A DNA stretch of 64,000 nt from a bacterium (GCA_035400585.1 DAOMZR010000002.1:15364-79363); one strand, 5' to 3'; positions 2,681 through 59,653 are shown, counted from the stretch's first letter. The notes: generated by a model not told the origin, from the sequence alone. Numbers and translations: made by a program.

Positions 2681-3238
2681 TTAATTATTATAATAGTTTA
2701 AATTATTAAAAAAAGTGAAATCTCTGAAAGGCCAAGCTCTAAGCATAACCTTTCCAACTAAAAAACTTTTGTTTACTGGGCCAAAACTACGAGAATCCAT
2801 AGAAGCATGGCGATTATCCCCTAAAACAAAATATTCGCTTTCTCCAACGCTTATCGGCCCCTCCTCCAAATTATAGGTTTTGACGCTTTTATCTAAATAT
2901 AAAGATTCATTAAGAATAAAACCGTCTGGATTTTCATCGTTAAATACATAAATGTCGCCATCAATAATTTCAACGGTTTCGTTTGGTAAAGCTATTATTC
3001 TTTTTATAAAATATTCCTTAGGATTTAAAGGATATCTAAAAACAACCGCCTCACCTCTTTGCGGTTCGTTAAATCTGTAAGATATTTCATCAATTATCAG
3101 ATACTCATGATCATGAAAATTGGGCTCCATTGAAGCTCCTTTAACATAAAAAGGTTGAATTATAAAATATCTAATTGGCAATATTATTAAAAGCGAAACA
3201 AATACTACTTTCAAAAAATAAAAAATGTTTCTTAACAT
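2681..3238 (-). CDS. lepB: Signal peptidase I
   Basis: N-terminal TM, catalytic GASMEPNF (Ser box), GDNRHASMDSR box. Confidence 0.9.
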   Translation of the reverse strand: MLRNIFYFLKVVFVSLLIILPIRYFIIQPFYVKGASMEPNFHDHEYLIIDEISYRFNEPQRGEAVVFRYPLNPKEYFIKRIIALPNETVEIIDGDIYVFNDENPDGFILNESLYLDKSVKTYNLEEGPISVGESEYFVLGDNRHASMDSRSFGPVNKSFLVGKVMLRAWPFRDFTFFNNLNYYNN

Positions 3239-3289
3239 AAATTATTGTTTTAATATATAACTAGAATCTAGCAGAAAAACTGCTAAAAA

Positions 3290-4354
3290 TCAAATTATGA
3301 ACATGGCATCACCGTAACTAAAAAAACGATATTTCAAATTAACAGCCTCTTGATACAAACTTAAAGTCTTCTCACGGCCAATTAAAGCGCTAATTAAAAG
3401 AAGCAAGCTTGATTTAGGAAGATGAAAATTAGTAATCAAACAATCAACAATTTTAAATTTATAACCCGGATAAATAAAAATGTCAGTAAAAAATCTCAAA
3501 TCGCCCCCATCATATTCTTCTATCTCGCCATCCTCTCTAAACTTTAAAAAAGTTGCTAAACTTTCCAAAATCCGACAAGAAGTGGTGCCAACAGCTATAA
3601 TCCTTTTGCCTTTGTTTTTGTTTTTAATTATAGAATTTATTGTTTGAGCTGATATTTCTATCTCTTCACTGTGCATTTTGTGTTCTAAAATATTTTCCGT
3701 TTTTATTGGCCAAAAGGTTCCCAGGCCAACATGCAAACTAGCTTCTAAAATTTTTATTCCCCTTTTTTCTATTTTTTGCAAAAGTTCTTCAGTAAAATGA
3801 AGGCCAGCTGTTGGGGCAGCCGAGGAACCAATTTTCTCATCTTTAGCATAAACAGTCTGATAATTTAAGTTGTCACTATCATCTTTTTTTTCTCTTTTGA
3901 TATAAGGCGGCAAAGGAACCTGTCCAATATTTTCCAACCTCTTAATAAAATCGGAGTAATTATCATTAAATTTAACTGAAAAAATATTATCTTCTTTATC
4001 TAATATTTCGGCCAAAAAATTTCCTGCAAAAAATAACTTAGAGCCAATCACAACCTTGCCACCAACTAAACATTGCCAAATGTTATTATTTTTATCTGTT
4101 GTTTTTAACAAAAATATTTCTATTTTTCCGCCACTTTCTTTGTTTAGTAGAATCCTAGCTTTAAAAACTTTAGAATTATTAACAAACAATAAATCGTCTG
4201 GTCTTAAAAAATCAACTATATTATAAAAATAAGAATGTTCAATTTTATCATTTTGACGATTATAAATTAAAAGGCGGGAACTATCCCGCGGATCAACTGG
4301 CTTTTGAGCTATTAGCTCCTTTGGTAAATTATAATTAAAATCTGATAAATTCAT
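3290..4354 (-). CDS. queA: S-adenosylmethionine:tRNA ribosyltransferase-isomerase
   Basis: [30 protein letters not shown]-terminus, GTTSCR motif. 4-nt overlap with ruvB stop (ruvB-queA order is classical). Confidence 0.9.
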
Positions 4355-5428: not shown

Positions 5429-6397
5429 TTAAGCAGAATTTACTGGAATTCTAATTATAAATTTAGCTCCCCGCCCAAGATCACTTTTAACCTTTATTCT
5501 GCCCGAAAAATCTCTTTCCACGATTCTTTTGCAAGAGAAAAGGCCTAGACCACAATTTATATTATTATCTTTGTTTGTTTTTGAAGAAAAAAAAGGATCA
5601 AAAATAGAGCTTAAATCTTTTAAATCAATTCCAATCCCATTATCTTTAAAAATTAAATAAATAAAATCGTTATTCTTAAAAAGTTTTATATTTATCTTTC
5701 TGGAAGACCCAATTTTTTTCTGCTTTAAAGAATCAATTGAGTTGCTTATCAAATTAATAATTAACTGGGAAAACTTTACTTTACTAGAAAACAAAAAAAG
5801 ATTGTCTTCTAAAATCAATTTTATTTTAATGCTATATTTTGTAAAATAAAAATTAAAAAGCATTAGACAATTTTTTATTTCTTCAGAAATTTTAAAATTA
5901 TCCAATCTCATTTTTTGTTTATATTGATCTCTTAAAAAAGAAACCAAGGAAAAAGCCTTGGTTGATATATCAACTAAATCTCGATGAACATTTTCACTAT
6001 TATTCAATTCATTTTTTTGATCAATTATCTTAGCTTTTAATTGCCCAAGCGATAAATTGAGAGCGGTTAAAATATTAGATAAGTCGTGATAAATTCCAAA
6101 AGAAATTTTATTAATTTCTATAATATTATAATGGTCAGTCATTTTATCAAGACAGGTTTTTATTTTAAAAGAAAATTCTTTTTTCTTTTTAAAAAAAGCC
6201 TTTTGTTCTCTTCTAATTTTTGTCGACAAGTGAAAAATAATAAAATTTATAAAAACAAAAGAAATTAACCACCAAAAAACAAAAAAAACTAATGTTGACC
6301 TAGAATAAACAACTCCACACAAAAACAAACCAAAAAACATTACAAAACTCAACAAAAAAACAAACAAATATTTCCTGTATTTTATTATACGATTCAT
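5429..6397 (-). CDS. Membrane sensor histidine kinase (HisKA + HATPase_c), no adjacent response regulator
   Basis: Two N-terminal TM helices, H-box-like FGIYHDLSNIL, N-box LINLISNSIDS, G-boxes DNGIGI and GLGLFSCKRIV. Confidence 0.8.
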   Translation of the reverse strand: MNRIIKYRKYLFVFLLSFVMFFGLFLCGVVYSRSTLVFFVFWWLISFVFINFIIFHLSTKIRREQKAFFKKKKEFSFKIKTCLDKMTDHYNIIEINKISFGIYHDLSNILTALNLSLGQLKAKIIDQKNELNNSENVHRDLVDISTKAFSLVSFLRDQYKQKMRLDNFKISEEIKNCLMLFNFYFTKYSIKIKLILEDNLFLFSSKVKFSQLIINLISNSIDSLKQKKIGSSRKINIKLFKNNDFIYLIFKDNGIGIDLKDLSSIFDPFFSSKTNKDNNINCGLGLFSCKRIVERDFSGRIKVKSDLGRGAKFIIRIPVNSA

Positions 6398-34044: not shown

Positions 34045-34866
34045 TTACTTTTTGTCATCTAAACTATTAAACCTATAAGGACTAATAACTTTTTTATTTA
34101 TTTTTTCTTCAATTTTTTGCCTAGCATCACCAGCTATTTTACCACCTTCATTCGCTATTTTTTTATTTTTTTTAAAATCATTTGGTTCTTTAACTTTAGA
34201 AATTTCAGTTGTAGCAGTTTCAGCTAACATATTTAACACTAACTCTAAATTAGTCATATTATCACGCAAATTTTCTTTCTTTAAATTTTTAAATTTTTTA
34301 TATTCTTTGACTGATAACTTTGACCAAGCTCTCACTATTTCATTAGTTAAAATAGCAAAATCTTTTTTGTTTTTTATGCCCCTATTTTGCCATTCATCAG
34401 TCAATGCTTTTCTAATTTCAATACTCTTCAACCTCTGATTAATCCAATCTTTGCTATAACCCTTTTTTAAATAAGTTGACAGCCCACGATTTATAGATAA
34501 CTCTGGATCACTAATTTCTTCAATTCTTTCATAGCCGACACGAGCTAACCATAATTTAAAAGGCTCGACCTTGGGGGATGGAATCGATTGAATTAATCTT
34601 AGTAAAGACTCAGTATTAGCACAGTCACTTTCCCTATTTTTTCCATCAGGAGCAATAATTTTCAAAGGTACGATTTTATCGTACACTTCACTGCCCTCAT
34701 CTTTTAAACGACTCTTAAGATCGCTCCAATATCTTTTTGGAATAGAACTACCAGTAAGAACAGCTATTATATCAATAACTGAGAAATACCATAATTCTTT
34801 TTCTTCTAACCAAACTCTACGAATTTTTTCATTATTAAAAATAATTATTTCTCCATTTTTATCCAT
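34045..34866 (-). CDS. BRO-N domain / DinD-like (phage antirepressor-related) protein
   Basis: N-terminal IIFNNEKIRRVWLEEKELWYFSVIDIIAVLTGS fits the Bro-N pattern. C-terminal LRDNMTNLELVLNMLAETAT resembles DinD-type proteins (from memory). ATG at 34866 preferred over 34905. Confidence 0.6.
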   Translation of the reverse strand: MDKNGEIIIFNNEKIRRVWLEEKELWYFSVIDIIAVLTGSSIPKRYWSDLKSRLKDEGSEVYDKIVPLKIIAPDGKNRESDCANTESLLRLIQSIPSPKVEPFKLWLARVGYERIEEISDPELSINRGLSTYLKKGYSKDWINQRLKSIEIRKALTDEWQNRGIKNKKDFAILTNEIVRAWSKLSVKEYKKFKNLKKENLRDNMTNLELVLNMLAETATTEISKVKEPNDFKKNKKIANEGGKIAGDARQKIEEKINKKVISPYRFNSLDDKK

Positions 34867-34940
34867 AATGTTTCTATTAATTTTTATTAATAAAAACATT
34901 AGCACAAAGCACCTAAAATAAACTTAAGCATAAAATAAAA

Positions 34941-34967
34941 AGAACGACCCCTTACGGGGCCGTTCTT
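34941..34967. terminator. Terminator downstream of the S-layer-like gene
   Basis: agaacgacccc-ttac-ggggccgttct (one mismatch) with T-runs on both strands. Confidence 0.7.
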
Positions 34968-35024
34968 TTGTTTTACAATTTATATTAAAGGAAAATTGAG
35001 AAAAACTTTGGATATACTAGAGAA

Positions 35025-38000
35025 CTAGTACTTCATTGAACCAAAATCTAGAGGTAATTCTTCTACGTAAGTGCTATTGTGGTCTTCATAGCCAGTTACG
35101 AAGTATTCACCCCAAGCAATTTTGTTTGTTTCAGCTACGTTGCTTAATGATAGACCAAAAGTTTTGTCAGCTCCAACTAGAATAGTGTTAGCTGTTACTC
35201 TTAATGTCTTGTCTGTTCCCTTGTTTACTACAAGTTCAAATCCAGAGAAGTTTCCATCAGTAGCGGTTGCTAAAGCCTTTGGATTTCCAACTTCATACAA
35301 AGAATATGAGTCTACTGCACCTCCAGTATTAGAAACAGTGAAGGCAATAGCAGTTAATCTCAAATCTTCATTAGCATCAGCAGCAACTTTGAATCTAGCT
35401 ACTTCTTGAGCAGATGAAGCACTTCCAACAATACCATTAACCTTAGAGAAGGTTGGTTTTGTTTTTCTAACAACCATGTGATTTGATAAAGCCAAGTTTT
35501 CACCAGAAATGTTTGCTTGAGCTAATTCAGATCCATTAGATGATTTAGCTACTATAGACTCATTCTTTACAATTAATGCTAGTTCTTTACCAGTATCAGT
35601 CTTAACTTCAATTGGGTTAAAGACAGCCTTTAAAGTAATAGTTTCGCTTCCATTTGCTGGAACAATTAACTTGTTTCCAGTAATAGAAAATGTAGCCACA
35701 CCTAAAATTGGATTAGTAGTATCCAATAATGTAGTACCCTTATACAAGCTATAGTGAGAAATTCTAGAATCAGTTGTTGTAACAACAGTTGTTGTAGCTG
35801 TTGGATTAACATTAACAAGCTTTAATTCTGTGATATTAGCACTATCATCAACTGCAGTTAGTCTAAATTGAGCAATTTCTTGTTCAACTCCAGCCTTAGC
35901 AATTAAAATGTTTGAGTAAGGAGTGCTAGCACCTTTAGCAATTGTTAATGTTCCACCAGCTGTAACAGCGAAGTTAACAGTATCATCAAACTTGGCATCA
36001 ATAGTTTTACCTAAAGAGTCCTGAGCATTAACTGTCATTTTTGTTTTGAATTCTGTTCCAGCAACACCAGCAGCTTCGCTAGTAAGAGATCCTTTTAATT
36101 CAATAGATTTTATTGCATTTTTTGCAATAGAATAATTTAATGAAGAAAAAGTAGCTCCAGCAGAAGTAAAGTTTCTAGTTGATCCAACTTGAACACCATC
36201 AATAAACAACTTCATATCATAAATATGAGAAGGAGATGTTGTAGCAGTTCCTGTTGAAATATTTCCACCTAATGAAATGCTTGTTAACTTTATAGCATCA
36301 TCTGTGGCTTTGATATTAAATTTACCCAAAGAAACATCAGTTGTTCCTTGAACAATTTTTCTACCATCAGTATAACCATCATTTCTAACAAAGGTCATGC
36401 CTCCTCCAGAAACTGTAACGTATTCACCTGAAGCTGTTCCGTTAATATCAGTAACGGCAAGGCCATTACTTGCGTATTCTGGAACACCAGCAGTTAATAG
36501 GTTAGTGTCATTTAAAGAAGCTTTAAATTGTCTGCCAATAATAGCATTTGTTTTAACATCAACAGTTACTTTAACCTCGTTATTACCCTTGTTAAGTGTT
36601 AAAGATGAATCAATCAATTCAAATTGACCACCAGGAGTTGTAGATGCTTTTAAGTCAAATGAACCTAATAATGAATTATTCAAATAAACTTTTGCATTTT
36701 GAAATGAATTTTCATCACCTTCATAGTTAACTCTTAGAGAGTCAGCATTAATAACTTCATCAGCTTTTACATTGGCTAATAAAACTACAACGTCTTTAGC
36801 ACCTTTAATTACATCTTGAGCTGCTGGTGAGGTTGATTTTTTAGAAATATCAACTGAACCAGACTCAATTTTGATAGTATCAAAATCAACACCATCATTA
36901 TAATCATAAGTAATACCAAAGCCTGTAGCTTTTTCGTAAGCATAAAGCTCATCCTTTTTATTTAGTCTTAGTGTAATGCTGTTGTTTCCACTATTGTCTT
37001 TTCCGATGATATCACCTTTTACAATGAAATCATAGTTATTTTCATCTCTTAAAAGATCCATTCCATTACCTTTTAATACAAAAGTAGCGTAACGACCATT
37101 AAAAGTAGCATTTTCAGAAACTTTTTCTCCAGCATTTTCTAGGTGCATATTCATGACTGTACTTGCTAAATCTTCAACACCGTTATTTCTCAATGTTAAA
37201 GTTTTGAAGACAACATCACGAGTTGTTGTTCCTGTTAATGCAAGATTAAATTTAGCCAACTCTACATCTTCATCTCCAACCTTTAAAGTAAGACTAGAAA
37301 CTGAAGAAGGGGTTGTTAATTTTAATCCAGTAACGTCATAAGTTGTGAAACTCATTAAATTACCAACGACTGGGAATGAACCAGAAACTGTAGCACCACT
37401 TGCTGAAACAGCAGAAGCAGAAACAATTCCCAAAGCACCATTTCCAGAAACACCTTCAACCTCGGCTAAGATTTCTAAAGTAACTGTTTGACCAGCTGCA
37501 ATAGTTAAAGCAGGTGCGAAAGTTAAAACAGCATCATCGTTAGATGTTAATGTTCTTTTTGAAGTAATTGTTACTCCATCTTTTTCAGCCCAAACTTTAA
37601 AAGTTGTTCCGTAGGTAGTTAATCCAGTTCTTTTAACAGTAATTGACTCTAGATGAGTAGCACCATCAGTAGAAGCTGTGAAGTTAACTTTTGTAAAAGG
37701 AATTCTTCCTACAGTTGATGGAACTGATTGAGAAGCAGGAGTCATTGAGTTTAAAGCAACTGTAACACCTGTTCCTTGACCTGGTTTCCAACCTGTAGAT
37801 TGTCCAGATTGTGAAGTCTTAACGATAGCAGCTTCAGCACCTGTGATAGTTGTACCACCAGCAGTGAAAGAGCTTAAAGTCAAAACGTTAGCATTTTGGA
37901 ATCTGTTAGCTAAGAAAGCAACTTCATCCTCGATTAAACGATAGTTAGTACCATCGTAGTAATAAATGCTATTTTCACCAGACTTTTTTACCAAAGAACC

Positions 38001-38486
38001 TACTGGTACTTCGTTAGAAGACAAAGGTTGTCCGATAGTATAGTTGGTGAAGAAAGAATCAGCTACGTCAACTACACGTTGTGCCCAATTAGCACCGTAT
38101 AGAGCAATAGCGTCAGCTTCTGTTTGTACCCATCTTAATGAACCATTTGGTTCAACAGCGTATACTTTTGGGTCAGTTGTAATTTTTACTAATTTTGTTC
38201 CAGGACGAATAACTACGTTAGCTCCCAATGGGTAGCTAGCTAATTCATCAGCGGAAACAGTAACAACACCTGAGAAGTCACTGTACCATGATTTGTAAGT
38301 AGCTTCGTTTGGAAATACATATCTTTTGCCATCTTCACCTAGGTAATAAACAGCTGAAAGACCATCTTTTTTGATTAAGTCACCAGCTTGAGCAGCAGCA
38401 TTAACTGATGGAGCAAATGCACCAACTGTTGTTAATACTGTTGTTACCATTACTAAAGATGCAAAAATTTTGCGTAATCTTTTCAT
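35025..38486 (-). CDS. Large secreted S-layer-like surface protein
   Basis: Signal peptide MKRLRKIFASLVMVTTVLTTVGAFAPSVNA|AAQ. No cysteine in the whole translation. T/S/V/A/G/N-rich beta-type sequence with recurring Ig-like-sized segments. Three N-terminal ~55-aa repeats. Codon choice differs from neighbours (ggt/gct/act/gtt/cca rich). ATG 38486 preferred over GTG 38519. Confidence 0.75.
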   Translation of the reverse strand: MKRLRKIFASLVMVTTVLTTVGAFAPSVNAAAQAGDLIKKDGLSAVYYLGEDGKRYVFPNEATYKSWYSDFSGVVTVSADELASYPLGANVVIRPGTKLVKITTDPKVYAVEPNGSLRWVQTEADAIALYGANWAQRVVDVADSFFTNYTIGQPLSSNEVPVGSLVKKSGENSIYYYDGTNYRLIEDEVAFLANRFQNANVLTLSSFTAGGTTITGAEAAIVKTSQSGQSTGWKPGQGTGVTVALNSMTPASQSVPSTVGRIPFTKVNFTASTDGATHLESITVKRTGLTTYGTTFKVWAEKDGVTITSKRTLTSNDDAVLTFAPALTIAAGQTVTLEILAEVEGVSGNGALGIVSASAVSASGATVSGSFPVVGNLMSFTTYDVTGLKLTTPSSVSSLTLKVGDEDVELAKFNLALTGTTTRDVVFKTLTLRNNGVEDLASTVMNMHLENAGEKVSENATFNGRYATFVLKGNGMDLLRDENNYDFIVKGDIIGKDNSGNNSITLRLNKKDELYAYEKATGFGITYDYNDGVDFDTIKIESGSVDISKKSTSPAAQDVIKGAKDVVVLLANVKADEVINADSLRVNYEGDENSFQNAKVYLNNSLLGSFDLKASTTPGGQFELIDSSLTLNKGNNEVKVTVDVKTNAIIGRQFKASLNDTNLLTAGVPEYASNGLAVTDINGTASGEYVTVSGGGMTFVRNDGYTDGRKIVQGTTDVSLGKFNIKATDDAIKLTSISLGGNISTGTATTSPSHIYDMKLFIDGVQVGSTRNFTSAGATFSSLNYSIAKNAIKSIELKGSLTSEAAGVAGTEFKTKMTVNAQDSLGKTIDAKFDDTVNFAVTAGGTLTIAKGASTPYSNILIAKAGVEQEIAQFRLTAVDDSANITELKLVNVNPTATTTVVTTTDSRISHYSLYKGTTLLDTTNPILGVATFSITGNKLIVPANGSETITLKAVFNPIEVKTDTGKELALIVKNESIVAKSSNGSELAQANISGENLALSNHMVVRKTKPTFSKVNGIVGSASSAQEVARFKVAADANEDLRLTAIAFTVSNTGGAVDSYSLYEVGNPKALATATDGNFSGFELVVNKGTDKTLRVTANTILVGADKTFGLSLSNVAETNKIAWGEYFVTGYEDHNSTYVEELPLDFGSMKY

Positions 38487-38609
38487 AACGATTTTATAAG
38501 ATATATCTTTAAATTGCACATAAAGGGGTACAACATTTAAAGATAAAATTTAGATTTCTTATAAAGATTGAGAATAAATCGTTTTGTCAGCTTTCAATTA
38601 GTTTAGAAT

Positions 38610-38930
38610 AAATCAGTCAGGATCCCGCTCCCCCGCACACTTATATAAACAAGTGAAGTGTAGGGAAAAATTAATTTGCCATAAGCATGAAACAGCAGGA
38701 TAATTTTTCACAACTCCGACGCTTATTTTTATAAGCGTGCGGAGAAAAGCTTAACCGATTTATTTGTGAAAAATTTTAAGCCTTTCTAAACTTTAAATTC
38801 TTTAATCTTTAAAGAAATATTTGGTTTTTAACATCCGCACCTTCCCCCTCGGGAATCGACCTTGCTGGCCACGGCGAATCTCTAATAATAGAGATTGAAG
38901 GCAACACAAAAAAATGCATAACCTTCAATC
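38610..38930 (-). promoter_or_regulatory. GC-rich, multi-hairpin spacer: candidate long structured 5' leader of the S-layer-like gene or an unclassified small RNA
   Basis: Hairpins at 38893-38930 (9-bp stem), 38878-38895, 38714-38744 (ctccg/gcttat...ataagc/cggag) and ~38629-38665. G-rich blocks GAGGGGGAAGGTGCGG and GTGCGGGGGAGCGGG (minus-strand sense) lie in otherwise AT-rich DNA. Confidence 0.35.
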
Positions 38931-38940
38931 GCTACTATCT

Positions 38941-39792
38941 TTATTTTATCTCTTGAAGTTTTAAAACAACCTCTCCATATTTACCCTCATCAAATAAACT
39001 CTCAATTTCTTCTATTAAAACTTGTTTGTTTTTTTTAATTTCTTGGTTACTTTCTAAATCTATTTTTTCACTTAATTCTTCAATTTGATCTCCTAGATTT
39101 TCTATCTCTGGGGTAGTACTGGCAGAAGCCTCAATATCAGACTCAGATGTGGTGCTTGTAGCTTCATCTAAGTTTTCTGAAAAATTATTACCATCAATAT
39201 AAATATCAATTCCGTTTTCTTCCTTTAATTCGCTAGCACTAAAAACTAATTGATCTTCACTGTTTTCAGTTTCGCTGGTTTGTAAATCAGCCACTTTAGT
39301 TTTAACCTTGTTTATTTCATCTTTAAAGCTAGCCGACAATCTTTCTACTTCATCTTTGTTTTGTTCAGTATTAAATTCTGGATCCATTAATAAGGTGGCG
39401 ATATCACGAGCATGATTGCTAGCAAATTCTAAAGCTAATTTTTCTCTTTCATTTTGATCAAAGGTTGTATTCAATCTAGCTCTCTCACTAATTACACGAG
39501 CGATATATAAAGAATCGGTTGGTTTAGAATTTTTATAGAAATCACTTCCCAAAAACAAAGAAGTCACTACAAATAAAAAAACACCGGATAAAACCATAGC
39601 CGGCCTAGAACTCATTGATAAAATATTTCTAACATAAAATAAAAAACTATTGAAATTCTTAGTTTCTGAATTATTGGAAATAGTATTAGAAATCTGAGTC
39701 ATCAAGATAGATTTGTTTGACTCTTTGACTCCTGCTTCCATTCTGATTGATTTCAGAGAATTAAGTTGTTTTAATAATTCTTTATCAGTCAT
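38941..39792 (-). CDS. DUF5667-like single-pass membrane protein (possible anti-sigma-type partner) with acidic C-terminal tail
   Basis: Central TM PAMVLSGVFLFVVTSLFLG, then DSLYIARVISERARLNTTFDQNEREKLALEFASNHARDIATLL, which matches the DUF5667 helical pattern as I recall it. An ECF-type sigma factor lies two genes upstream. Confidence 0.6.
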   Translation of the reverse strand: MTDKELLKQLNSLKSIRMEAGVKESNKSILMTQISNTISNNSETKNFNSFLFYVRNILSMSSRPAMVLSGVFLFVVTSLFLGSDFYKNSKPTDSLYIARVISERARLNTTFDQNEREKLALEFASNHARDIATLLMDPEFNTEQNKDEVERLSASFKDEINKVKTKVADLQTSETENSEDQLVFSASELKEENGIDIYIDGNNFSENLDEATSTTSESDIEASASTTPEIENLGDQIEELSEKIDLESNQEIKKNKQVLIEEIESLFDEGKYGEVVLKLQEIK

Positions 39793-39894
39793 AAAATAAT
39801 AAGGTTTTTACCTTGCAACATAGTATACGTAATAAACTGAAAAAAGTTACAGTTAAAAATCATTTTATTATTGATAACATTGATTAATAATTAC

Positions 39895-39920
39895 TTAAGT
39901 CCACAAATTTGTGGACTTAA
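39895..39920. repeat. 26-bp perfect palindrome
   Basis: ttaagtccacaaa|tttgtggacttaa. Extends to 15-bp arms with one bulge. ~100 bp upstream of the 39792 start codon. Confidence 0.9.
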
Positions 39921-39990
39921 AGTGTTTATTTTGTTTTTTAATATTTCCAGAAAACAAAAAAGTTTATTTTTAATATCCCCTAAAAACAAA

Positions 39991-40016
39991 AAGAGAGAGG
40001 ATTAATCCTCTCTCTT
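39991..40016 (-). terminator. Terminator of the short pilin gene
   Basis: aagagagaggatt|aatcctctctctt perfect palindrome, followed on the minus strand by a T-rich run. Confidence 0.75.
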
Positions 40017-40031
40017 TCATGGAGACAAAAA

Positions 40032-40478
40032 CTAGTCAACGTGAACAATTCCGCCAGGAGTTGCTTGTTTATAACCAGCTTTTAGACCACCAGTTTGATC
40101 ACCCAAACAGAAATCAATTCTGTAAGAAGCATAACCAGCACCAGCAGTTACACCTTGTGGGATGTAAGTGTAAGTGTTAGAAGCTGAAGTACAGATACCA
40201 TCAGCTGGAGTTGGAGCAGTTGGAACGATGTTCATGTAAGTAACACCATTTGAAGCGATTGTGTCGCCAGCTGTTACTGCATCTGGATAGTATTGATTGT
40301 CATTGAAGTACAATTCCAAAGCTGTTTGCATTTGGCGTACGTCAGCAATTCTTTTAGCATCTCTAGCATTCTTTCTAGCTTGTTGTAAAGCAACAACAGC
40401 TAAAGTTGCCAAGATACCAATGATGGCAATAACCACCAACAACTCGATCAAGGTAAAACCTTTTCTCTTTGTGTTCAT
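40032..40478 (-). CDS. Type IV pilin-like protein, 148 aa (probable major pilin/pseudopilin)
   Basis: MNTKRKG|[36 protein letters not shown]. Cys pair DGICTS..IDFCLG. Ends right after the shared ..ATPGGI block. Codon usage shifted to ttg/atc/ggt/gct. Own terminator. Confidence 0.9.
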   Translation of the reverse strand: MNTKRKGFTLIELLVVIAIIGILATLAVVALQQARKNARDAKRIADVRQMQTALELYFNDNQYYPDAVTAGDTIASNGVTYMNIVPTAPTPADGICTSASNTYTYIPQGVTAGAGYASYRIDFCLGDQTGGLKAGYKQATPGGIVHVD

Positions 40479-40631
40479 AATTTTCTTAAAATTTCACTTA
40501 ATATAAATCGTTAAAATTAAACAAGTTATAATAAGTGTTTTTAAATTATTTAAATTAATAAAAGAACAATATTATTACTATAAAATGGTATCATAAATAC
40601 AAAAAATATACAAGAAAAAAATGTTAATAAA

Positions 40632-41204
40632 CTAGTCTCTTTCTCCGACTACATCCTTTAAAGCTTTAATTGCTCGATGCAATAAAACCCTAACATTCAT
40701 TTTTTTCTTTCCAGTAATTTCAGCAATCTCATCTAAACTTAATTCGTTAACATATCTCATAATAACTATTTCGCGATATTCATTTTTAATTTCCATCATT
40801 TTTTTAGACAGTATTTCATAATCAATTTGGGTAGAAATTTCTGACTCAATATCTATATTTTCATCGGCTACATCTATTTTATTTTCTTCAACATCAAGAG
40901 AGATGCTTTCTTGTCGATTGCTTCTATAGTGATCAATAATTACATTTCTGGTTATTTTATAAAGCAAAGCTCTTAAAGTTTCCCTGTTAGATAAGGTGTT
41001 TTTTTGAATATGTTCCCAAGTTTTTAAGAAGGCTAGAGAAGACAAATCGTTAGCATCTTCCTTTTTCCCTGTTTTGAAAAATATAAAACGATAAATATCA
41101 TCGGCATTTTTATCATAAAGCTCTTCAAATGCTTGTTGATCTTTATTTTTAATTCTTTCCTTTAATTTTTTGTCTTTAAAATTTTCAATTATATTTAAAC
41201 TCAT
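40632..41204 (-). CDS. RNA polymerase sigma-70 family factor, ECF-like (regions 2 and 4 only)
   Basis: Region 2 IYRFIFFKTGKKEDANDLSSLAFLKTWEH. Region 4 EYREIVIMRYVNELSLDEIAEITGKKKMNVRVLLHRAIKALK. Confidence 0.85.
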   Translation of the reverse strand: MSLNIIENFKDKKLKERIKNKDQQAFEELYDKNADDIYRFIFFKTGKKEDANDLSSLAFLKTWEHIQKNTLSNRETLRALLYKITRNVIIDHYRSNRQESISLDVEENKIDVADENIDIESEISTQIDYEILSKKMMEIKNEYREIVIMRYVNELSLDEIAEITGKKKMNVRVLLHRAIKALKDVVGERD

Positions 41205-41346
41205 TTTCTTTATTTATTACAAAAAATACAAACAATTAAACAAAAATATAGAGATTTAACCTCTTTTTTGTCTTTATAGTGTAGCATAAAGACAAAAAAA
41301 ATACAAACCATCAAAAAAGTAGTTTGTATTATAAAAAGATAAAAGT

Positions 41347-52351: not shown

Positions 52352-54781
52352 TTAATTTTTTATACAACGTACAGAATTGCCCTGATCATAGGGAGCACTA
52401 AAACGTTCGGAGCCACTATTCCAATAAGTAATTCTACGGCCCCAAAGACTATTCGAATATATTTCAGTAGAAGACCAAGCACGGAAATAATCATTCAAAT
52501 CAGCAACTCTTTCTCCCTCATAATAAGAATTCCAAAAACCACCAGGAACAATATTTAGGCCACTTTCACCAAAAACAGAATTATTTCTCAAGACTCCATC
52601 AGTCCATATTTCATAATTGCCAGCCATAAAACTACCTTCGTTAGTCCCTCTTGCGCCATTAGTTGTTACGTCTTTGGGAAACTTAGTATCACAACTATCA
52701 TTACCCAAAATAGAGCAAATTGTCCTCTCCAAATCAGTAAAATCATCGTGAGAGGGAAGTCTCCATCCATCAGGACAGGCCGTTAAAGCAGCCACCCCAT
52801 TATATAGAACTCCATGATTTTGATAATTTAGAGAACTTTTAGCTTCTTCCGTATCAGTTCCGTTGTAATTATAAACAAAATATCTTGGCTCTGTATAACT
52901 AGAATTGCCCCCAGAAAGAGGACTTTCGCTTGAAGGATAAACAGTTGGAAGATATTTTAAATTTTCGGACATCCAAACTTGATCACCAATACCGGTCCAA
53001 GAATATTCTTCACCATCTCTTGAATCAATAAATGTCCCAGAAGTTGAACAATTATAATCATACAAAACAGGGTCACCACCAAAACAATTTGATGGATAAG
53101 AATTTATAACAGTTCTTGTTTTTTTCCCATAAAAACATTCGCTCCAATCAGAATAATCAAATGAAGTACAAATTGCTTGTTCGGGTATTAATCTTCTAAT
53201 AACTAGTGCATTAGAACTATTATTGTCAGGCGATTGTTCTTCCATAAACATTAAATAGATAGTATCATTATCAATCAACATTGATATATTAGAAAAAGTT
53301 TCGCTATGAGAAGCAATCGGTCCTACACTTTCCCAAGAAGTCCCATTAAATTTTTTTACCTCCACTAAACCTGGATTAACAGCTGGATTAGTAGCAGAAA
53401 CATTGCTACCATTTTTATAAGCAACATAGGGAACTTCATTATAAATATAAAGAGCTAATTGAGAAGCATGACCAACCGAAAAAACTCCATCGTTTGGACC
53501 AAGTGGCACCCAGGATGTTCCATTAAATTTTAAAGCAACGCCTCTTTCACCAACGCCTTCACTTGCAATATCTTTACCTCCCTGATAAACAACATACAAA
53601 TCACCATTATTACTTATTTGAAAATCAGCATGACCAGAGCTCTCAGTATGAAGTATTTCTATTGGCTCACCAACCCAGTTCCAACTAGTTCCATCAAATT
53701 TTTTAATCACCCACTTTGGAGCGCCAGAATCACAATCTCTTCTATACATAACATAAAGCTCTCCATTATGAATTCTAAGAATTGGTTTAGTTCCTTTTTG
53801 ACCATTAGAAACAGTTGGCCCAACCTGTTCCCAAGCTCCATTTACAAATTTAACGACATAAGTTTCTTCGGTTGAAGCTTCATCTTTATAAGCAACATAA
53901 GGTATATTATCGTACACGGTTAAAGACGGCTGACAAGCTATATCAAAAGAAGTATATTCGCCAATAGTTTCCCATGTATCATTTATAAATTTTTTTGTTA
54001 TAATCATGTCTGATCCATTTTTATCCTTGTAAGAAATATATGGCACGCCATTAAAAATTTGCATCGATGATTTACCATTAGAATTGTCAGGACCATCTAT
54101 TCTCTCCCCTAGTGGTGTTGCTGTCGATTCGTTAACTTTAGCCATTTTTAAATAATAACTCTCTGAGGCATCTCGATAAGAAGCATATAGTTCATTACTG
54201 TAAATACCTAAACTAGAGCTACACCCCCAATCAGATAAAACAGGACTTCCGTAGGTTTGCCAAACACATCCTGAAGAATCAGCCAAACAATTATTTTCAA
54301 TATTGCCTCCGTCATCGTCACCACCACCCTCAATTCCACAATCTTGATTTAATATTCCACCGGGAGTTAAACATTTTGGACCAGATTCTAAATTGTTAGA
54401 ATCTTTTCCCAAACAAAAAGACAAAAGATAAGTACGATTATTATTTTGAGGTTCATAAAAATATGAATTTTGTTCACCACTACAATCACCATCGGCCACC
54501 ATCGGAGCTTCTGGAATTTTTTCCATAAACACGTCAGAAACGCCAGCAATTTTGCCGGTATTCCACTCTTCTTCGGTTGGATAGCGATTATGTTCATTAA
54601 AAAAGATCTCTAGAGCGGTTTGTAATTGTTTCATGTCGGCCACTCTTTTAGAATCTCTAGCACTAACTCTGGCTTGTTGCAAAGCAACAACAGCTAAAGT
54701 TGCCAATAAACCAATTATAGCTATTACTACTAACAACTCTACCAAGGTAAAGCCTTTTTTCTTTTTTAATCTTTTAAACAT
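52352..54781 (-). CDS. Modular pilin: pilin-like module + 7 divergent propeller repeats + C-terminal Fibrobacter-type (FISUMP/Fib_succ_major-like) domain
   Basis: [10 protein letters not shown]|[28 protein letters not shown]. Head ends CLTPGGI, linker [10 protein letters not shown]. Repeats ..PYISYKD/PYVAYKD/LYVMYRR..KF.GTSW. Last 226 aa [44 protein letters not shown] fits the FISUMP pattern (from memory). Confidence 0.85.
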
Positions 54782-57964: not shown

Positions 57965-59497
57965 TTAAGGAGTAACGTCAAATTTCATAACTGAAGCTTT
58001 ACCAGAAATGCCAAAATCTTCATAACCAACATAAGCGATATCATTATCTATCTGTAAAGAAATATCAGTAGCCATAGCACCAGAAAAGCCAACATTTCCA
58101 ACTAATTCCCAAGAAGAACCATTATACTTCATAACCGAAACAGCACTAGAGTTGTCACCATCAGGATAAGCAACCAAAGGTGTTCCATTATAAAACTTAA
58201 GAGAAATAACATCGTTTACATCGCCAGTAAAACCAGCGGTTCCAACTAATTCCCAAGATGAACCATTATATTTCATGGAAGTCAAACCAGCGACTGTATA
58301 GTCTCTATAGACGACATAAGGTGTTCCATTATATATTTGCAAAGAAATAGTATCTATTTGACCGGTTGAAAAACCAAGCGGTCCAACCAATTCCCAAGAT
58401 GAACCGTTGTATTTCATAACAGTGGCTGCACCACCATCACTAAAATCCATATAGGCCACATAAGGCGTTCCGCCATATACATAAAGAGATATATAACCAG
58501 CCATTCCAGCTGAAAAACCAGCAGTTCCAACCAATTCCCAGGCTGAACCGTTATATCTCATAACAGTAGCTTTACTAGAGTTAGCCCCGTCTTGGTAAGC
58601 AACATAAAGAGTGCCATTATACATAAAAGAATTAATATAATTAACAGCACCAGCAGAGAAACCAGCAGTTCCAACTAGTTCCCAGGCTGAACCGTTATAT
58701 CTCATAACGGTAGCTTTGTTGGAATTGCCACCGTCTCTGTAGGCCACATACGGAGTTCCATTATAAATCTGCAATGTTGTCCAATCAACAGCACCAGCAG
58801 AGAAACCAGCGGTTCCAACTAATTCCCAAGAAGATCCATTATATCTCATAACAGTGGCTTTGTTAGAATTAGCTCCGTCTCTGTAAGCTAAATATGGAGT
58901 ATTGTTATAAATTTGCAAAGAAGTCCAATCAGCTGTTCCTGGTGTAAAACCGGCAGTTCCAACTAAACCCCAAGAACAACCAGTAGGATTAACCAGACAA
59001 CCCTCTGGCTCTGGTGTACCACCGCCTGAACCACTAGCAATTATTATCCCTCCCGGTGTTAATTGTTTTACTCCATCTGGTAAGTCGGACACTTGTTTGC
59101 CAGTACAGAAATCGATAGTATAACTAGCTCCATTATCTCTAGGAGTATAAACATAAGTGTTAGAAGCCTCCAAACAAGCTCCATCGGCTGGATAGGGAGC
59201 AGAAGGAATTTCTTGCATAAAAAGAATTCCCTCAGTTGAAGAACCAATGAAGCCTTCATTCCACTCTTCTTCTGTGGGATATCTACCATACTGATTGGCA
59301 AACAATTCTAGAGCTGTTTGCATTTGTTTTATATCAGCTACTCTTTTACTGTCCCTGGCATTCTGTCTAGCTTGTTGTAAAGCTACTATAGCCAAGGTTG
59401 CCAATATACCAATGATGGCAATAACCACCAAAAGCTCAACCAAGGTAAATCCTTTTTTATGGTTTTTAAAAAAAGGGGAATTTTTTTTTCTTAACAT
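57965..59497 (-). CDS. Modular pilin: pilin-like module + seven 48-aa repeats (predicted 7-blade propeller)
   Basis: MLRKKNSPFFKNHKKG|[28 protein letters not shown]. Head ends QLTPGGI, linker SGSGGGTPEPEG. 7x (SWELVGTAGFSAGAVDWTTLQIYNGTPYVAYRDGGNSNKATVMRYNGS). Alternative upstream ATG at 59524. Confidence 0.85.
   Translation of the reverse strand: MLRKKNSPFFKNHKKGFTLVELLVVIAIIGILATLAIVALQQARQNARDSKRVADIKQMQTALELFANQYGRYPTEEEWNEGFIGSSTEGILFMQEIPSAPYPADGACLEASNTYVYTPRDNGASYTIDFCTGKQVSDLPDGVKQLTPGGIIIASGSGGGTPEPEGCLVNPTGCSWGLVGTAGFTPGTADWTSLQIYNNTPYLAYRDGANSNKATVMRYNGSSWELVGTAGFSAGAVDWTTLQIYNGTPYVAYRDGGNSNKATVMRYNGSAWELVGTAGFSAGAVNYINSFMYNGTLYVAYQDGANSSKATVMRYNGSAWELVGTAGFSAGMAGYISLYVYGGTPYVAYMDFSDGGAATVMKYNGSSWELVGPLGFSTGQIDTISLQIYNGTPYVVYRDYTVAGLTSMKYNGSSWELVGTAGFTGDVNDVISLKFYNGTPLVAYPDGDNSSAVSVMKYNGSSWELVGNVGFSGAMATDISLQIDNDIAYVGYEDFGISGKASVMKFDVTP
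57968..58978 (-). repeat. Seven in-frame tandem 144-bp coding repeats
   Basis: Recurring DNA blocks such as gttccaac(t/c)a(a/g)ttcccaag/ggc..gaaccgttatatctcataac. By eye the units are similar but not identical. Confidence 0.85.
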
Positions 59498-59653
59498 AAA
59501 GTTTGGAATCAATTTAAAAAGCATAATAATAAAATTAAAATGACTTCAAAATTTTACATAAAAATTATAAAATAAAATATATTGTAATATTATAACAAAA
59601 AAATTAAATTAAATCAAGAAAACAAAAAGGTAATTATAAAGAAAAAAAATTTA

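Follow-up and report, generated by a model that had tools for sequence, protein, structure and literature searches.

In the sigmaW-RsiW system of Bacillus subtilis, the gene for the membrane partner lies immediately downstream of that for the sigma factor, and the promoter type is TGAAAC-N16-CGTA. The leaders of surface-layer (S-layer) genes, such as slpA of Lactobacillus and slpA of Thermus thermophilus, are long and stably folded, with about 100-200 nucleotides (nt) arranged in simple hairpins, and are thought to prolong the life of the mRNA or to allow autoregulation. In Streptomyces venezuelae, an ECF (extracytoplasmic function) sigma factor, SigmaBldN, and its single-pass anti-sigma factor RsbN control the chaplin and rodlin genes of the surface sheath, with BldD serving as an additional DNA-binding repressor at promoters of the system (PMC6101532). 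Here we describe a locus from a 64,000-nt stretch of bacterial DNA (GCA_035400585.1, DAOMZR010000002.1:15364-79363; hereafter the window, with positions counted from its first letter) that can be compared with each of these systems. It codes for an ECF sigma factor, a DUF5667-like membrane protein and a large, putatively secreted protein, the last of which is preceded by a spacer that appears to specify a conserved structured RNA of about 450 nt. The window has a G+C content of about 31%, and its genome appears to be close to Candidatus Falkowbacteria, among the ultra-small bacteria of the Patescibacteria.

Read along the minus strand, the locus begins with the gene for the ECF (group IV) sigma factor (40632-41204; 190 amino acids, aa), which is followed after a gap of 153 bp by a type IV pilin gene (40032-40478; 148 aa) and then by the gene for the DUF5667-like single-pass membrane protein, a putative anti-sigma factor (38941-39792; 283 aa). 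The spacer of 454 bp (38487-38940) separates the latter from the large gene (35025-38486), which codes for 1153 aa. The full open reading frame (ORF) of this gene spans 35025-38519; in most of the related loci, residue 1 of the homologues lines up with the ATG at 38486, which is hence the preferred start. An intrinsic terminator with a 14-pair stem, including 7 GC pairs, and a T-run is predicted 3' of the large gene (34938-34969, minus strand). An initial annotation of this DNA had listed these genes and gaps along with the pilin terminator and the palindrome discussed below, and all of them were recovered at the same positions. No recognizable Shine-Dalgarno sequence was found before the starts of the four genes (upstream of 41204, 40478, 39792 and 38486), suggesting that translation initiation probably proceeds via other features. 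Leaving the pilin aside, we consider it probable, on balance, that the locus is a conserved Falkowbacteria module composed of an ECF sigma factor, an ECF-type promoter, a DUF5667 protein, a structured RNA of about 450 nt and a surface-protein gene.

Conservation of the locus and its ECF-type promoter

For comparison we assembled 80 loci from species-representative genomes, which were retrieved via an alignment of DUF5667 homologues and in which the neighboring genes were placed by tblastn. Nearly all loci of sufficient length have the sigma factor gene, the DUF5667 gene, the spacer and the large gene in this order on one strand. The sigma factor gene adjoins the DUF5667 gene in about 70 genomes, usually across a gap of 30-60 bp, and the large gene is the next gene after DUF5667 in nearly every locus. 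The expectation that ECF sigma genes are normally followed directly by their membrane partners is thus upheld for this family, with the two genes linked in almost all of the related genomes, and the pilin of the window emerges, as the initial annotation had surmised, as an interloper between the sigma factor and its partner.

An ECF-type promoter, TGTAAC-N16-CGTATA, is predicted at 39824-39851 on the minus strand, past the pilin terminator and the palindrome, and 31 nt upstream of the DUF5667 ATG. It is the single match in the window with up to two mismatches allowed. Of the 80 related loci, 75 contain GTAAC-N16-CGTA, which lies upstream of DUF5667 (about 36 nt before the ATG) in about 65, and nine distant loci contain a classical GTGTAAC-N16-CGTAT directly upstream of the sigma factor gene. 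This places at the sigma/anti-sigma locus a predicted promoter with AAC in its -35 element and CGT in its -10 element, which would drive DUF5667 and may be recognized by the neighboring sigma factor. The promoter is near-identical to the sigmaW type, with which it shares the AAC of the -35 element, the 16-nt spacer and the CGTA of the -10 element; likewise, in both systems the gene for the membrane partner lies immediately downstream of the sigma factor gene. The two differ in that the partner in this locus lacks a zinc-binding or other recognized anti-sigma domain, and in that the ECF promoter here mostly precedes the partner gene and not the sigma factor gene, which implies that the sigma factor is not obviously autoregulated. 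Upstream of the pilin, the large gene and the other pilin-like genes no ECF motif was found with two mismatches allowed; accordingly, the common promoter motif that had been envisaged upstream of 40478, 39792 and 38486 did not materialize, the ECF motif being present only before 39792.

In the main clade of the related loci (L019, L033, L040 and others, at about 5965-6003), the -35 hexamer TGTAAC contains the stop codon of the sigma factor gene. The DUF5667 ATG of this clade lies only about 10 nt past CGTATA, suggesting that its DUF5667 message is leaderless or nearly so. Additional ECF-type matches, GTAAC-N16-CCGTA, are seen 2-4 kb upstream in one subclade (L041:1984, L073:3011, L074:3171 and 1944 (minus strand)), where they are conserved among three genomes and occur without an obvious ORF start downstream.

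The spacer RNA and the proposed operon

The spacer between the DUF5667 gene and the large gene is 447-560 nt long in most loci and contains blocks that are near-invariant across genomes whose DUF5667 proteins are only about 30% identical. In the window it folds at -138.9 kcal/mol, compared with -94.9 +/- 5.95 kcal/mol for shuffled sequences (z = -7.4). Folding and covariation delineate a series of elements, all on the minus strand. The first of these, helix H1 (38884-38939; -25.9 kcal/mol), begins 2 nt past the DUF5667 stop codon; in the main clade it is a 21-pair stem with compensatory changes at 6 pairs, and its sequence is strongly conserved beyond the pairing itself. It is followed by module A (38830-38882), a three-way junction around the conserved AAGGUCGA, in which 10 of 11 predicted pairs are kept through two-sided changes in 52 sequences, and whose window copy is detected by nhmmer with E=5.7e-8. 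In module B (38608-38763) a variable interior is enclosed by the conserved core AAAUCGGUUAAGCUUUUCUCC...GGAGCGGGAUCCUGACUGAUUU, which can also be written AAAUCGGUUAAGCUUUUCUCC...GGAGCGGGAUUCCGACUGAUUU. In this module 94.5% of cells are paired (49 sequences) as against 24-44% in slid controls, and double changes are seen at 17 pairs versus 8.9 +/- 1.8 in shuffles; furthermore, the abundance of G-U pairs assigns the RNA to the gene strand. Of module B, the window clade retains the conserved loops together with P1 and P2, and it differs in the interior. A covariance model built solely from the main clade recovered the window copy (38606-38763, minus strand; 63.5 bits, E=1e-12) as its only hit in the window, and also matched copies in the distant clade, always upstream of the large gene and on the gene strand. 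The last element is a 3' hairpin formed by the inverted repeat I13 (38496-38555), which ends about 10 nt before the start codon; in the main clade 11 of its 12 pairs are compensatory and its loop, ACUACUAUUGU, is conserved. Judged by this strong covariation, the spacer is a conserved and hitherto undescribed multi-domain RNA, with representatives in more than 70 related species.

In size, modularity, covarying helices and conserved unpaired nucleotides this RNA resembles the large and ligand-binding RNAs catalogued in Rfam (riboswitches, OLE, raiA, ROOL, GOLLD and HEARO). It differs from them in matching no known family: a scan of the whole window against Rfam 15 at the gathering threshold gave no match in the spacer, and the spacers of the window and of L040, a main-clade locus, gave only chance-level hits at E<=10. 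Likewise, a literature search returned no RNA motif described in Falkowbacteria. A repeat or miniature inverted-repeat transposable element was also rejected, since blastn, nhmmer and the covariance model all gave a single copy in the window, and the RNA occurs as one copy per locus (covariance model, nhmmer). The exception is L066, in which modules A and B are tandemly duplicated upstream of the large gene (2840-3075 and 3184-3431). Public gene annotations place an ORF of 36 aa over H1 and module A (window 38809-38919, minus strand, corresponding to L001:10874-10984, and also on L002); as the variation in this region takes the form of compensatory base pairing and is not codon-like, we take this call to be spurious.

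The slpA-type leaders share with this RNA a long stable fold ahead of a highly expressed surface-layer gene, here a candidate one. Unlike those leaders, the RNA comprises at least five conserved modules over about 450 nt, would lie inside an operon after another gene, and has internal loops that are invariant across species in which the flanking proteins are only 30% identical. Such invariant unpaired nucleotides argue for the specific binding of a protein or ligand over mere stabilization. We tentatively raise the possibility that the element is a large cis-acting regulatory RNA of a new class, confined to Falkowbacteria-like Patescibacteria, in which the three-way junction and the invariant core UUAAGCUUUUCUCC / GGAGCGGGAUUCCGA that P1 and P2 close would bind a ligand or protein and thereby set the output of the main surface protein. 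If so, an RNA sensor would have been added to an ECF sigma/anti-sigma circuit, a combination that has not been described before. The large size, the modularity and the highly conserved loops, together with the tandem duplication of modules A and B in one genome, might also be expected of a trans-acting non-coding RNA that is independent of the genes around it, has a promoter and 3' end of its own, and merely happens to be located here. This is very improbable, given that the RNA is invariably encoded on the gene strand, with its end 91-183 nt before the large-gene ATG in every locus, that its conserved 3' hairpin abuts the start codon, and that neither a terminator after module B nor a promoter was found.

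Several features bear on how the RNA and the large gene are transcribed. Between 39792 and 35025 no intrinsic terminator was detected, strong ones being present after the pilin and after the large gene. A search of 52 spacers, and of the 170 nt before H1 in 67 loci, recovered no sigma70-like or ECF-like promoter at a conserved position, only scattered hits. In some species H1 starts 5-25 nt past the DUF5667 stop codon. Certain loci have further genes inserted between DUF5667 and the RNA, where the spacer is about 1.2 kb, and all of these are co-oriented: a methyltransferase gene in 7 loci, which in most of them starts 4 nt past the DUF5667 stop codon, and a HicAB-like pair in 2 loci. Together, the lack of a terminator and of a conserved internal promoter, the proximity of H1 to the stop codon and the co-oriented insertions favor a single transcript encompassing DUF5667, the RNA and the large gene, and their co-transcription is our best reading of these signals. 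The inserted methyltransferase (about 265 aa and class I S-adenosylmethionine methyltransferase-like; L026:6811-7623, L027, L029, L056, L024, L082 and L083) is spread over several subclades and may be an ancestral member of the operon that was lost by most lineages, including that of the window.

A rival explanation for the same arrangement is that a strong, unrecognized promoter, located at the RNA or just upstream of it, serves the large gene alone. In that case the RNA would be a long 5' untranslated leader with a stabilizing or regulatory role, and the sigma/DUF5667 pair a conserved neighbor which may or may not regulate it. The codon bias of the large gene (see below) implies very high expression, which is more easily attained from a dedicated promoter; moreover, the conserved sequence of H1 could hide promoter elements, and patescibacterial promoters are poorly defined. 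Nevertheless, we regard this explanation as doubtful, if worth serious consideration, because no sigma70-like or ECF-like motif recurs at a conserved position in either set of sequences searched, because H1 follows the stop codon so closely in some species that there is no space for an intergenic promoter, and because the inserted genes are all co-oriented.

The palindrome and the pilin cassette

About 45 nt upstream of the -35 element of the window's ECF promoter (45-60 nt in the window clade and a few other loci) lies a 26-bp inverted repeat, TTAAGTCCA-N8-TGGACTTAA (39895-39920). The pattern AAGTC-N12-GACTT was found in 76 of 86 loci, yielding 106 distinct instances. In these the half-sites TTAAGTCYA and TRGACTTAA are invariant, whereas only 38-71% of the instances show complementarity at the eight central bases, and 56% at the Y/R position. 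We ruled out a second terminator or RNA hairpin on account of the invariant half-sites, the non-complementary center and the lack of a T-run after the repeat. Instead, invariant half-sites around a non-complementary center are the signature of a dimeric DNA-binding protein and not of an RNA stem; hence, we predict that the palindrome is a conserved operator-like site, TTAAGTCYA-N8-TRGACTTAA, and a protein target. In the main clade one to four tandem copies with a spacing of about 61-76 nt lie upstream of the sigma factor gene, abutting the start of a divergent HTH_17 gene (e.g. L033:4983-5080, L058:4917-5061, L074:5044 and 5887). The product of the latter, a small HTH_17 (excisionase-type) protein of 81-106 aa, is encoded divergently from the sigma factor in 70 loci (e.g. 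L033:4703-4969 and L011:4783-5103, both on the minus strand) and is the likely candidate for the palindrome binder.

The pilin matches N_methyl (PF07963; E=2.8e-10) and TIGR02532 (38.4 bits against a cut-off of 16.3), and its prepilin cleavage/methylation motif and hydrophobic helix identify it as a predicted type IV pilin. Its synonymous-codon divergence of 0.29 is the largest in the window, and that of the large gene is 0.14, compared with 0.02-0.06 in the other genes of more than 400 codons. These values, the strongest for their length, agree with the earlier observation that these two genes are the most codon-biased of the window, on which it had been proposed that the sigma/anti-sigma-like pair may control two major surface polymers, the pilin and the S-layer-like protein. 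The location of this most codon-biased gene between the sigma factor and DUF5667, and the operator-like palindrome just downstream of it, are indeed what one might expect if the pilin were a target.

The distribution and signals of the pilin gene point in another direction. Only the window and L007, L008 and L009, its closest relatives with 63-69% DUF5667 identity, have this gene at the junction of the sigma factor and DUF5667 genes, and in other genomes unrelated GIY-YIG-like, nucleotidyltransferase-like and Fic-like genes are found at the same junction. Unrelated insertions at one site suggest that this junction is an insertion hotspot and that the pilin is a recent arrival. Besides lacking the ECF motif, the pilin has a predicted sigma70-like promoter (40585-40613, minus strand), TTGTAT-N12-TTTATGMTAC, in common with the sigma factor gene, and an intrinsic terminator of its own (39989-40018, minus strand; 13-pair stem, 4-nt loop and T-run), which is conserved in L007 and L008. 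This combination of its own promoter and terminator with a restricted distribution indicates an inserted cassette outside the circuit, and joint control of both polymers by the sigma/anti-sigma pair is accordingly improbable. The part of that proposal that ties the pair to the S-layer-like gene is retained, being consistent with the synteny, the ECF promoter and the lack of a terminator before the large gene; the part concerning the pilin is not. We interpret the pilin as an independent lineage-specific cassette whose insertion appears to be an evolutionary accident.

Four further pilin paralogs had been reported in the window, of which a motif scan recovered only two prepilin-type ORFs, at 52352-54781 and 57965-59524 (minus strand). 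These code for 809 and 519 aa, respectively, share the prepilin motif and helix of the pilin at their starts, and look like pilin-like proteins with large C-terminal extensions.

The encoded proteins and the proposed circuit

The sigma factor contains Sigma70_r2 (residues 29-97) and Sigma70_r4_2 (residues 134-182) as its Pfam domains, and scores above the cut-offs of the Pfam model Sigma70_ECF (32.8 bits versus 21.1) and of TIGR02937 (88.9 bits versus 42.9). With only the sigma2 and sigma4 domains in about 190 aa, it is assigned to the ECF (group IV) class. Its best solved relatives are 6dxo_A, followed by SigW (5wuq; E=1e-15 over the full length). The best NCBIfam match is the BldN family TIGR02952 (E=3e-31); the score of 108.6 bits is far under the family cut-off of 206.45, which rules out a BldN orthologue. 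The sigma factor gene itself has a predicted sigma70-like promoter, by resemblance to the consensus, at 41278-41306 on the minus strand (TTGTAT-N12-TTTATGCTACACT), in a region that is 88% identical to the stretch upstream of the pilin, and main-clade sigma genes carry an analogous TTGCTT...TATGCTAnnAT. In the leader of the sigma factor gene there is a short hairpin with a U-run (41236-41264, minus strand; AGAGGTTAAATCTCTATATTTTTGTTTAA), the positional analogue of GGCGGG...CCCGTTATTTTTTGTTAA, which most related loci conserve between the promoter and the sigma ATG. By appearance the element is an attenuator or terminator within the leader. Main-clade loci have the GGCGGG...CCCGTTATTTTTTGTTAA hairpin and U-tract about 60-100 nt upstream of the sigma ATG (e.g. 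L038:5285-5320).

The membrane protein of the window matches DUF5667 (PF18915) with E=7.6e-4 and 20.3 bits, below the Pfam threshold of 27; among 21 family members 10 match this domain, the best with E=4.5e-10. The alignment indicates about 60 cytoplasmic residues, a hydrophobic segment at approximately residues 64-83 and then a helical ectodomain. A literature search found no paper on DUF5667, and a search for a solved homologue turned up nothing beyond a coiled-coil similarity to the stalk of OmpM (E=0.016), which we discounted. The predicted single-pass topology and adjacency to an ECF sigma factor gene are those of an anti-sigma factor, and the protein is most likely the cognate, if putative, anti-sigma factor of the system. 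In this respect it parallels RsbN, which is also an adjacent single-pass partner without similarity to the classical anti-sigma domains; under our proposal the parallel would extend to an ECF sigma factor that drives a surface-coat protein and to an extra repressor-type site at the promoter. The differences from SigmaBldN-RsbN are that the partner has a cytoplasmic part of about 60 aa as opposed to 117 aa in RsbN, that the proposed target here would belong to the same operon, downstream of a large structured RNA, and that the organism is a patescibacterium and not an actinomycete.

The large protein has at least 1385 homologues, all unnamed, of about 1150 aa and devoid of Pfam domains, and a signal peptide, MKRLRKIFASLVMVTTVLTTVGAFAPSVNA, is visible at its start. 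An AF2 model (pLDDT 81) shows an N-terminal alpha/beta domain followed by a chain of Ig-like beta-sandwich domains; modelled alone, the N-terminal domain (pLDDT 88) forms a triple repeat. Foldseek searches returned generic Ig-array matches including integrins, macroglobulins and PrgB, with the S-layer assembly domain of Bacillus anthracis Sap (6qx4) at rank 48 (E=3.9e-7). Like Sap, the protein is predicted to be secreted and to combine an N-terminal non-Ig domain with a beta-sandwich chain; it differs from Sap in having no SLH or CWB2 anchor and in the generic Ig-array nature of its fold matches. A literature search yielded no paper identifying an S-layer protein in these bacteria. Given its predicted secretion and the high expression implied by its codon bias, the protein is a reasonable but unproven S-layer or coat candidate.

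Near the locus, a Bro-N domain protein is encoded at 34045-34905 on the minus strand of the window. A Bro-N protein recurs near the locus in L020, L021, L028 and L033 (upstream, on the opposite strand) and in L060 (downstream), with its position and orientation varying among genomes.

In light of the above, we propose the following scheme. The sigma factor would be made from a housekeeping-type promoter and would transcribe, from the ECF promoter, a single operon of DUF5667, the RNA and the surface protein that ends at the terminator at 34938-34969. The DUF5667 protein would restrain the sigma factor in a negative feedback until a cell-surface signal frees it. The RNA would constitute the leader of the surface-protein message, and would probably uncouple the level and translation of that message from those of the low-abundance anti-sigma gene, through processing or stabilization, factor binding, or both. 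The palindrome would be an operator for a dimeric DNA-binding protein, likely the HTH_17 protein that neighbors the sigma factor elsewhere, and the pilin cassette would have come to separate the sigma factor gene from the ECF promoter by insertion in a single small lineage. As an explanation of the whole locus, we hold a sigma-controlled operon with a large leader RNA to be moderately likely.

A number of observations weigh against this scheme. Co-transcription is argued from the absence of recognizable signals in an organism whose promoters are poorly known, and H1 could act as a partial terminator. A protein made at the level of an S-layer would be unusual as the distal gene of an anti-sigma operon, and such a position would call for a very active sigma factor or for post-transcriptional amplification. 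The DUF5667 protein has only some 60 aa on its cytoplasmic side, and these do not match a known anti-sigma domain, with no Pfam or NCBIfam match to a zf-HC2, RsdA or RskA-type domain in the window protein or the 21 family members. A homologue search found no HTH_17 gene in the window. Finally, a Pfam search recovered no SLH, CWB2 or similar anchoring module in the large protein, and its N-terminal domain only weakly matches EccB repeats (E=7e-4, TM 0.24).

The ECF circuit itself is ordinary; what merits further attention is the undescribed RNA and the candidate coat protein. Patescibacteria (also termed CPR) account for a large share of bacterial diversity, and to our knowledge there is hardly any information on the construction or regulation of the surface with which they attach to their hosts. 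The locus offers a candidate for a major patescibacterial surface-coat protein, along with a simple putative circuit for it that consists of an ECF sigma factor, its promoter, a membrane partner and an operator site. It also provides predicted ECF and housekeeping-type promoter consensus sequences for a lineage with uncharacterized promoters. Few large conserved RNAs of unknown function exist in bacteria, and time and again such RNAs have proved to have unusual biochemistry; the spacer contributes a large, well-supported RNA of this kind, without a described relative, from more than 70 species.

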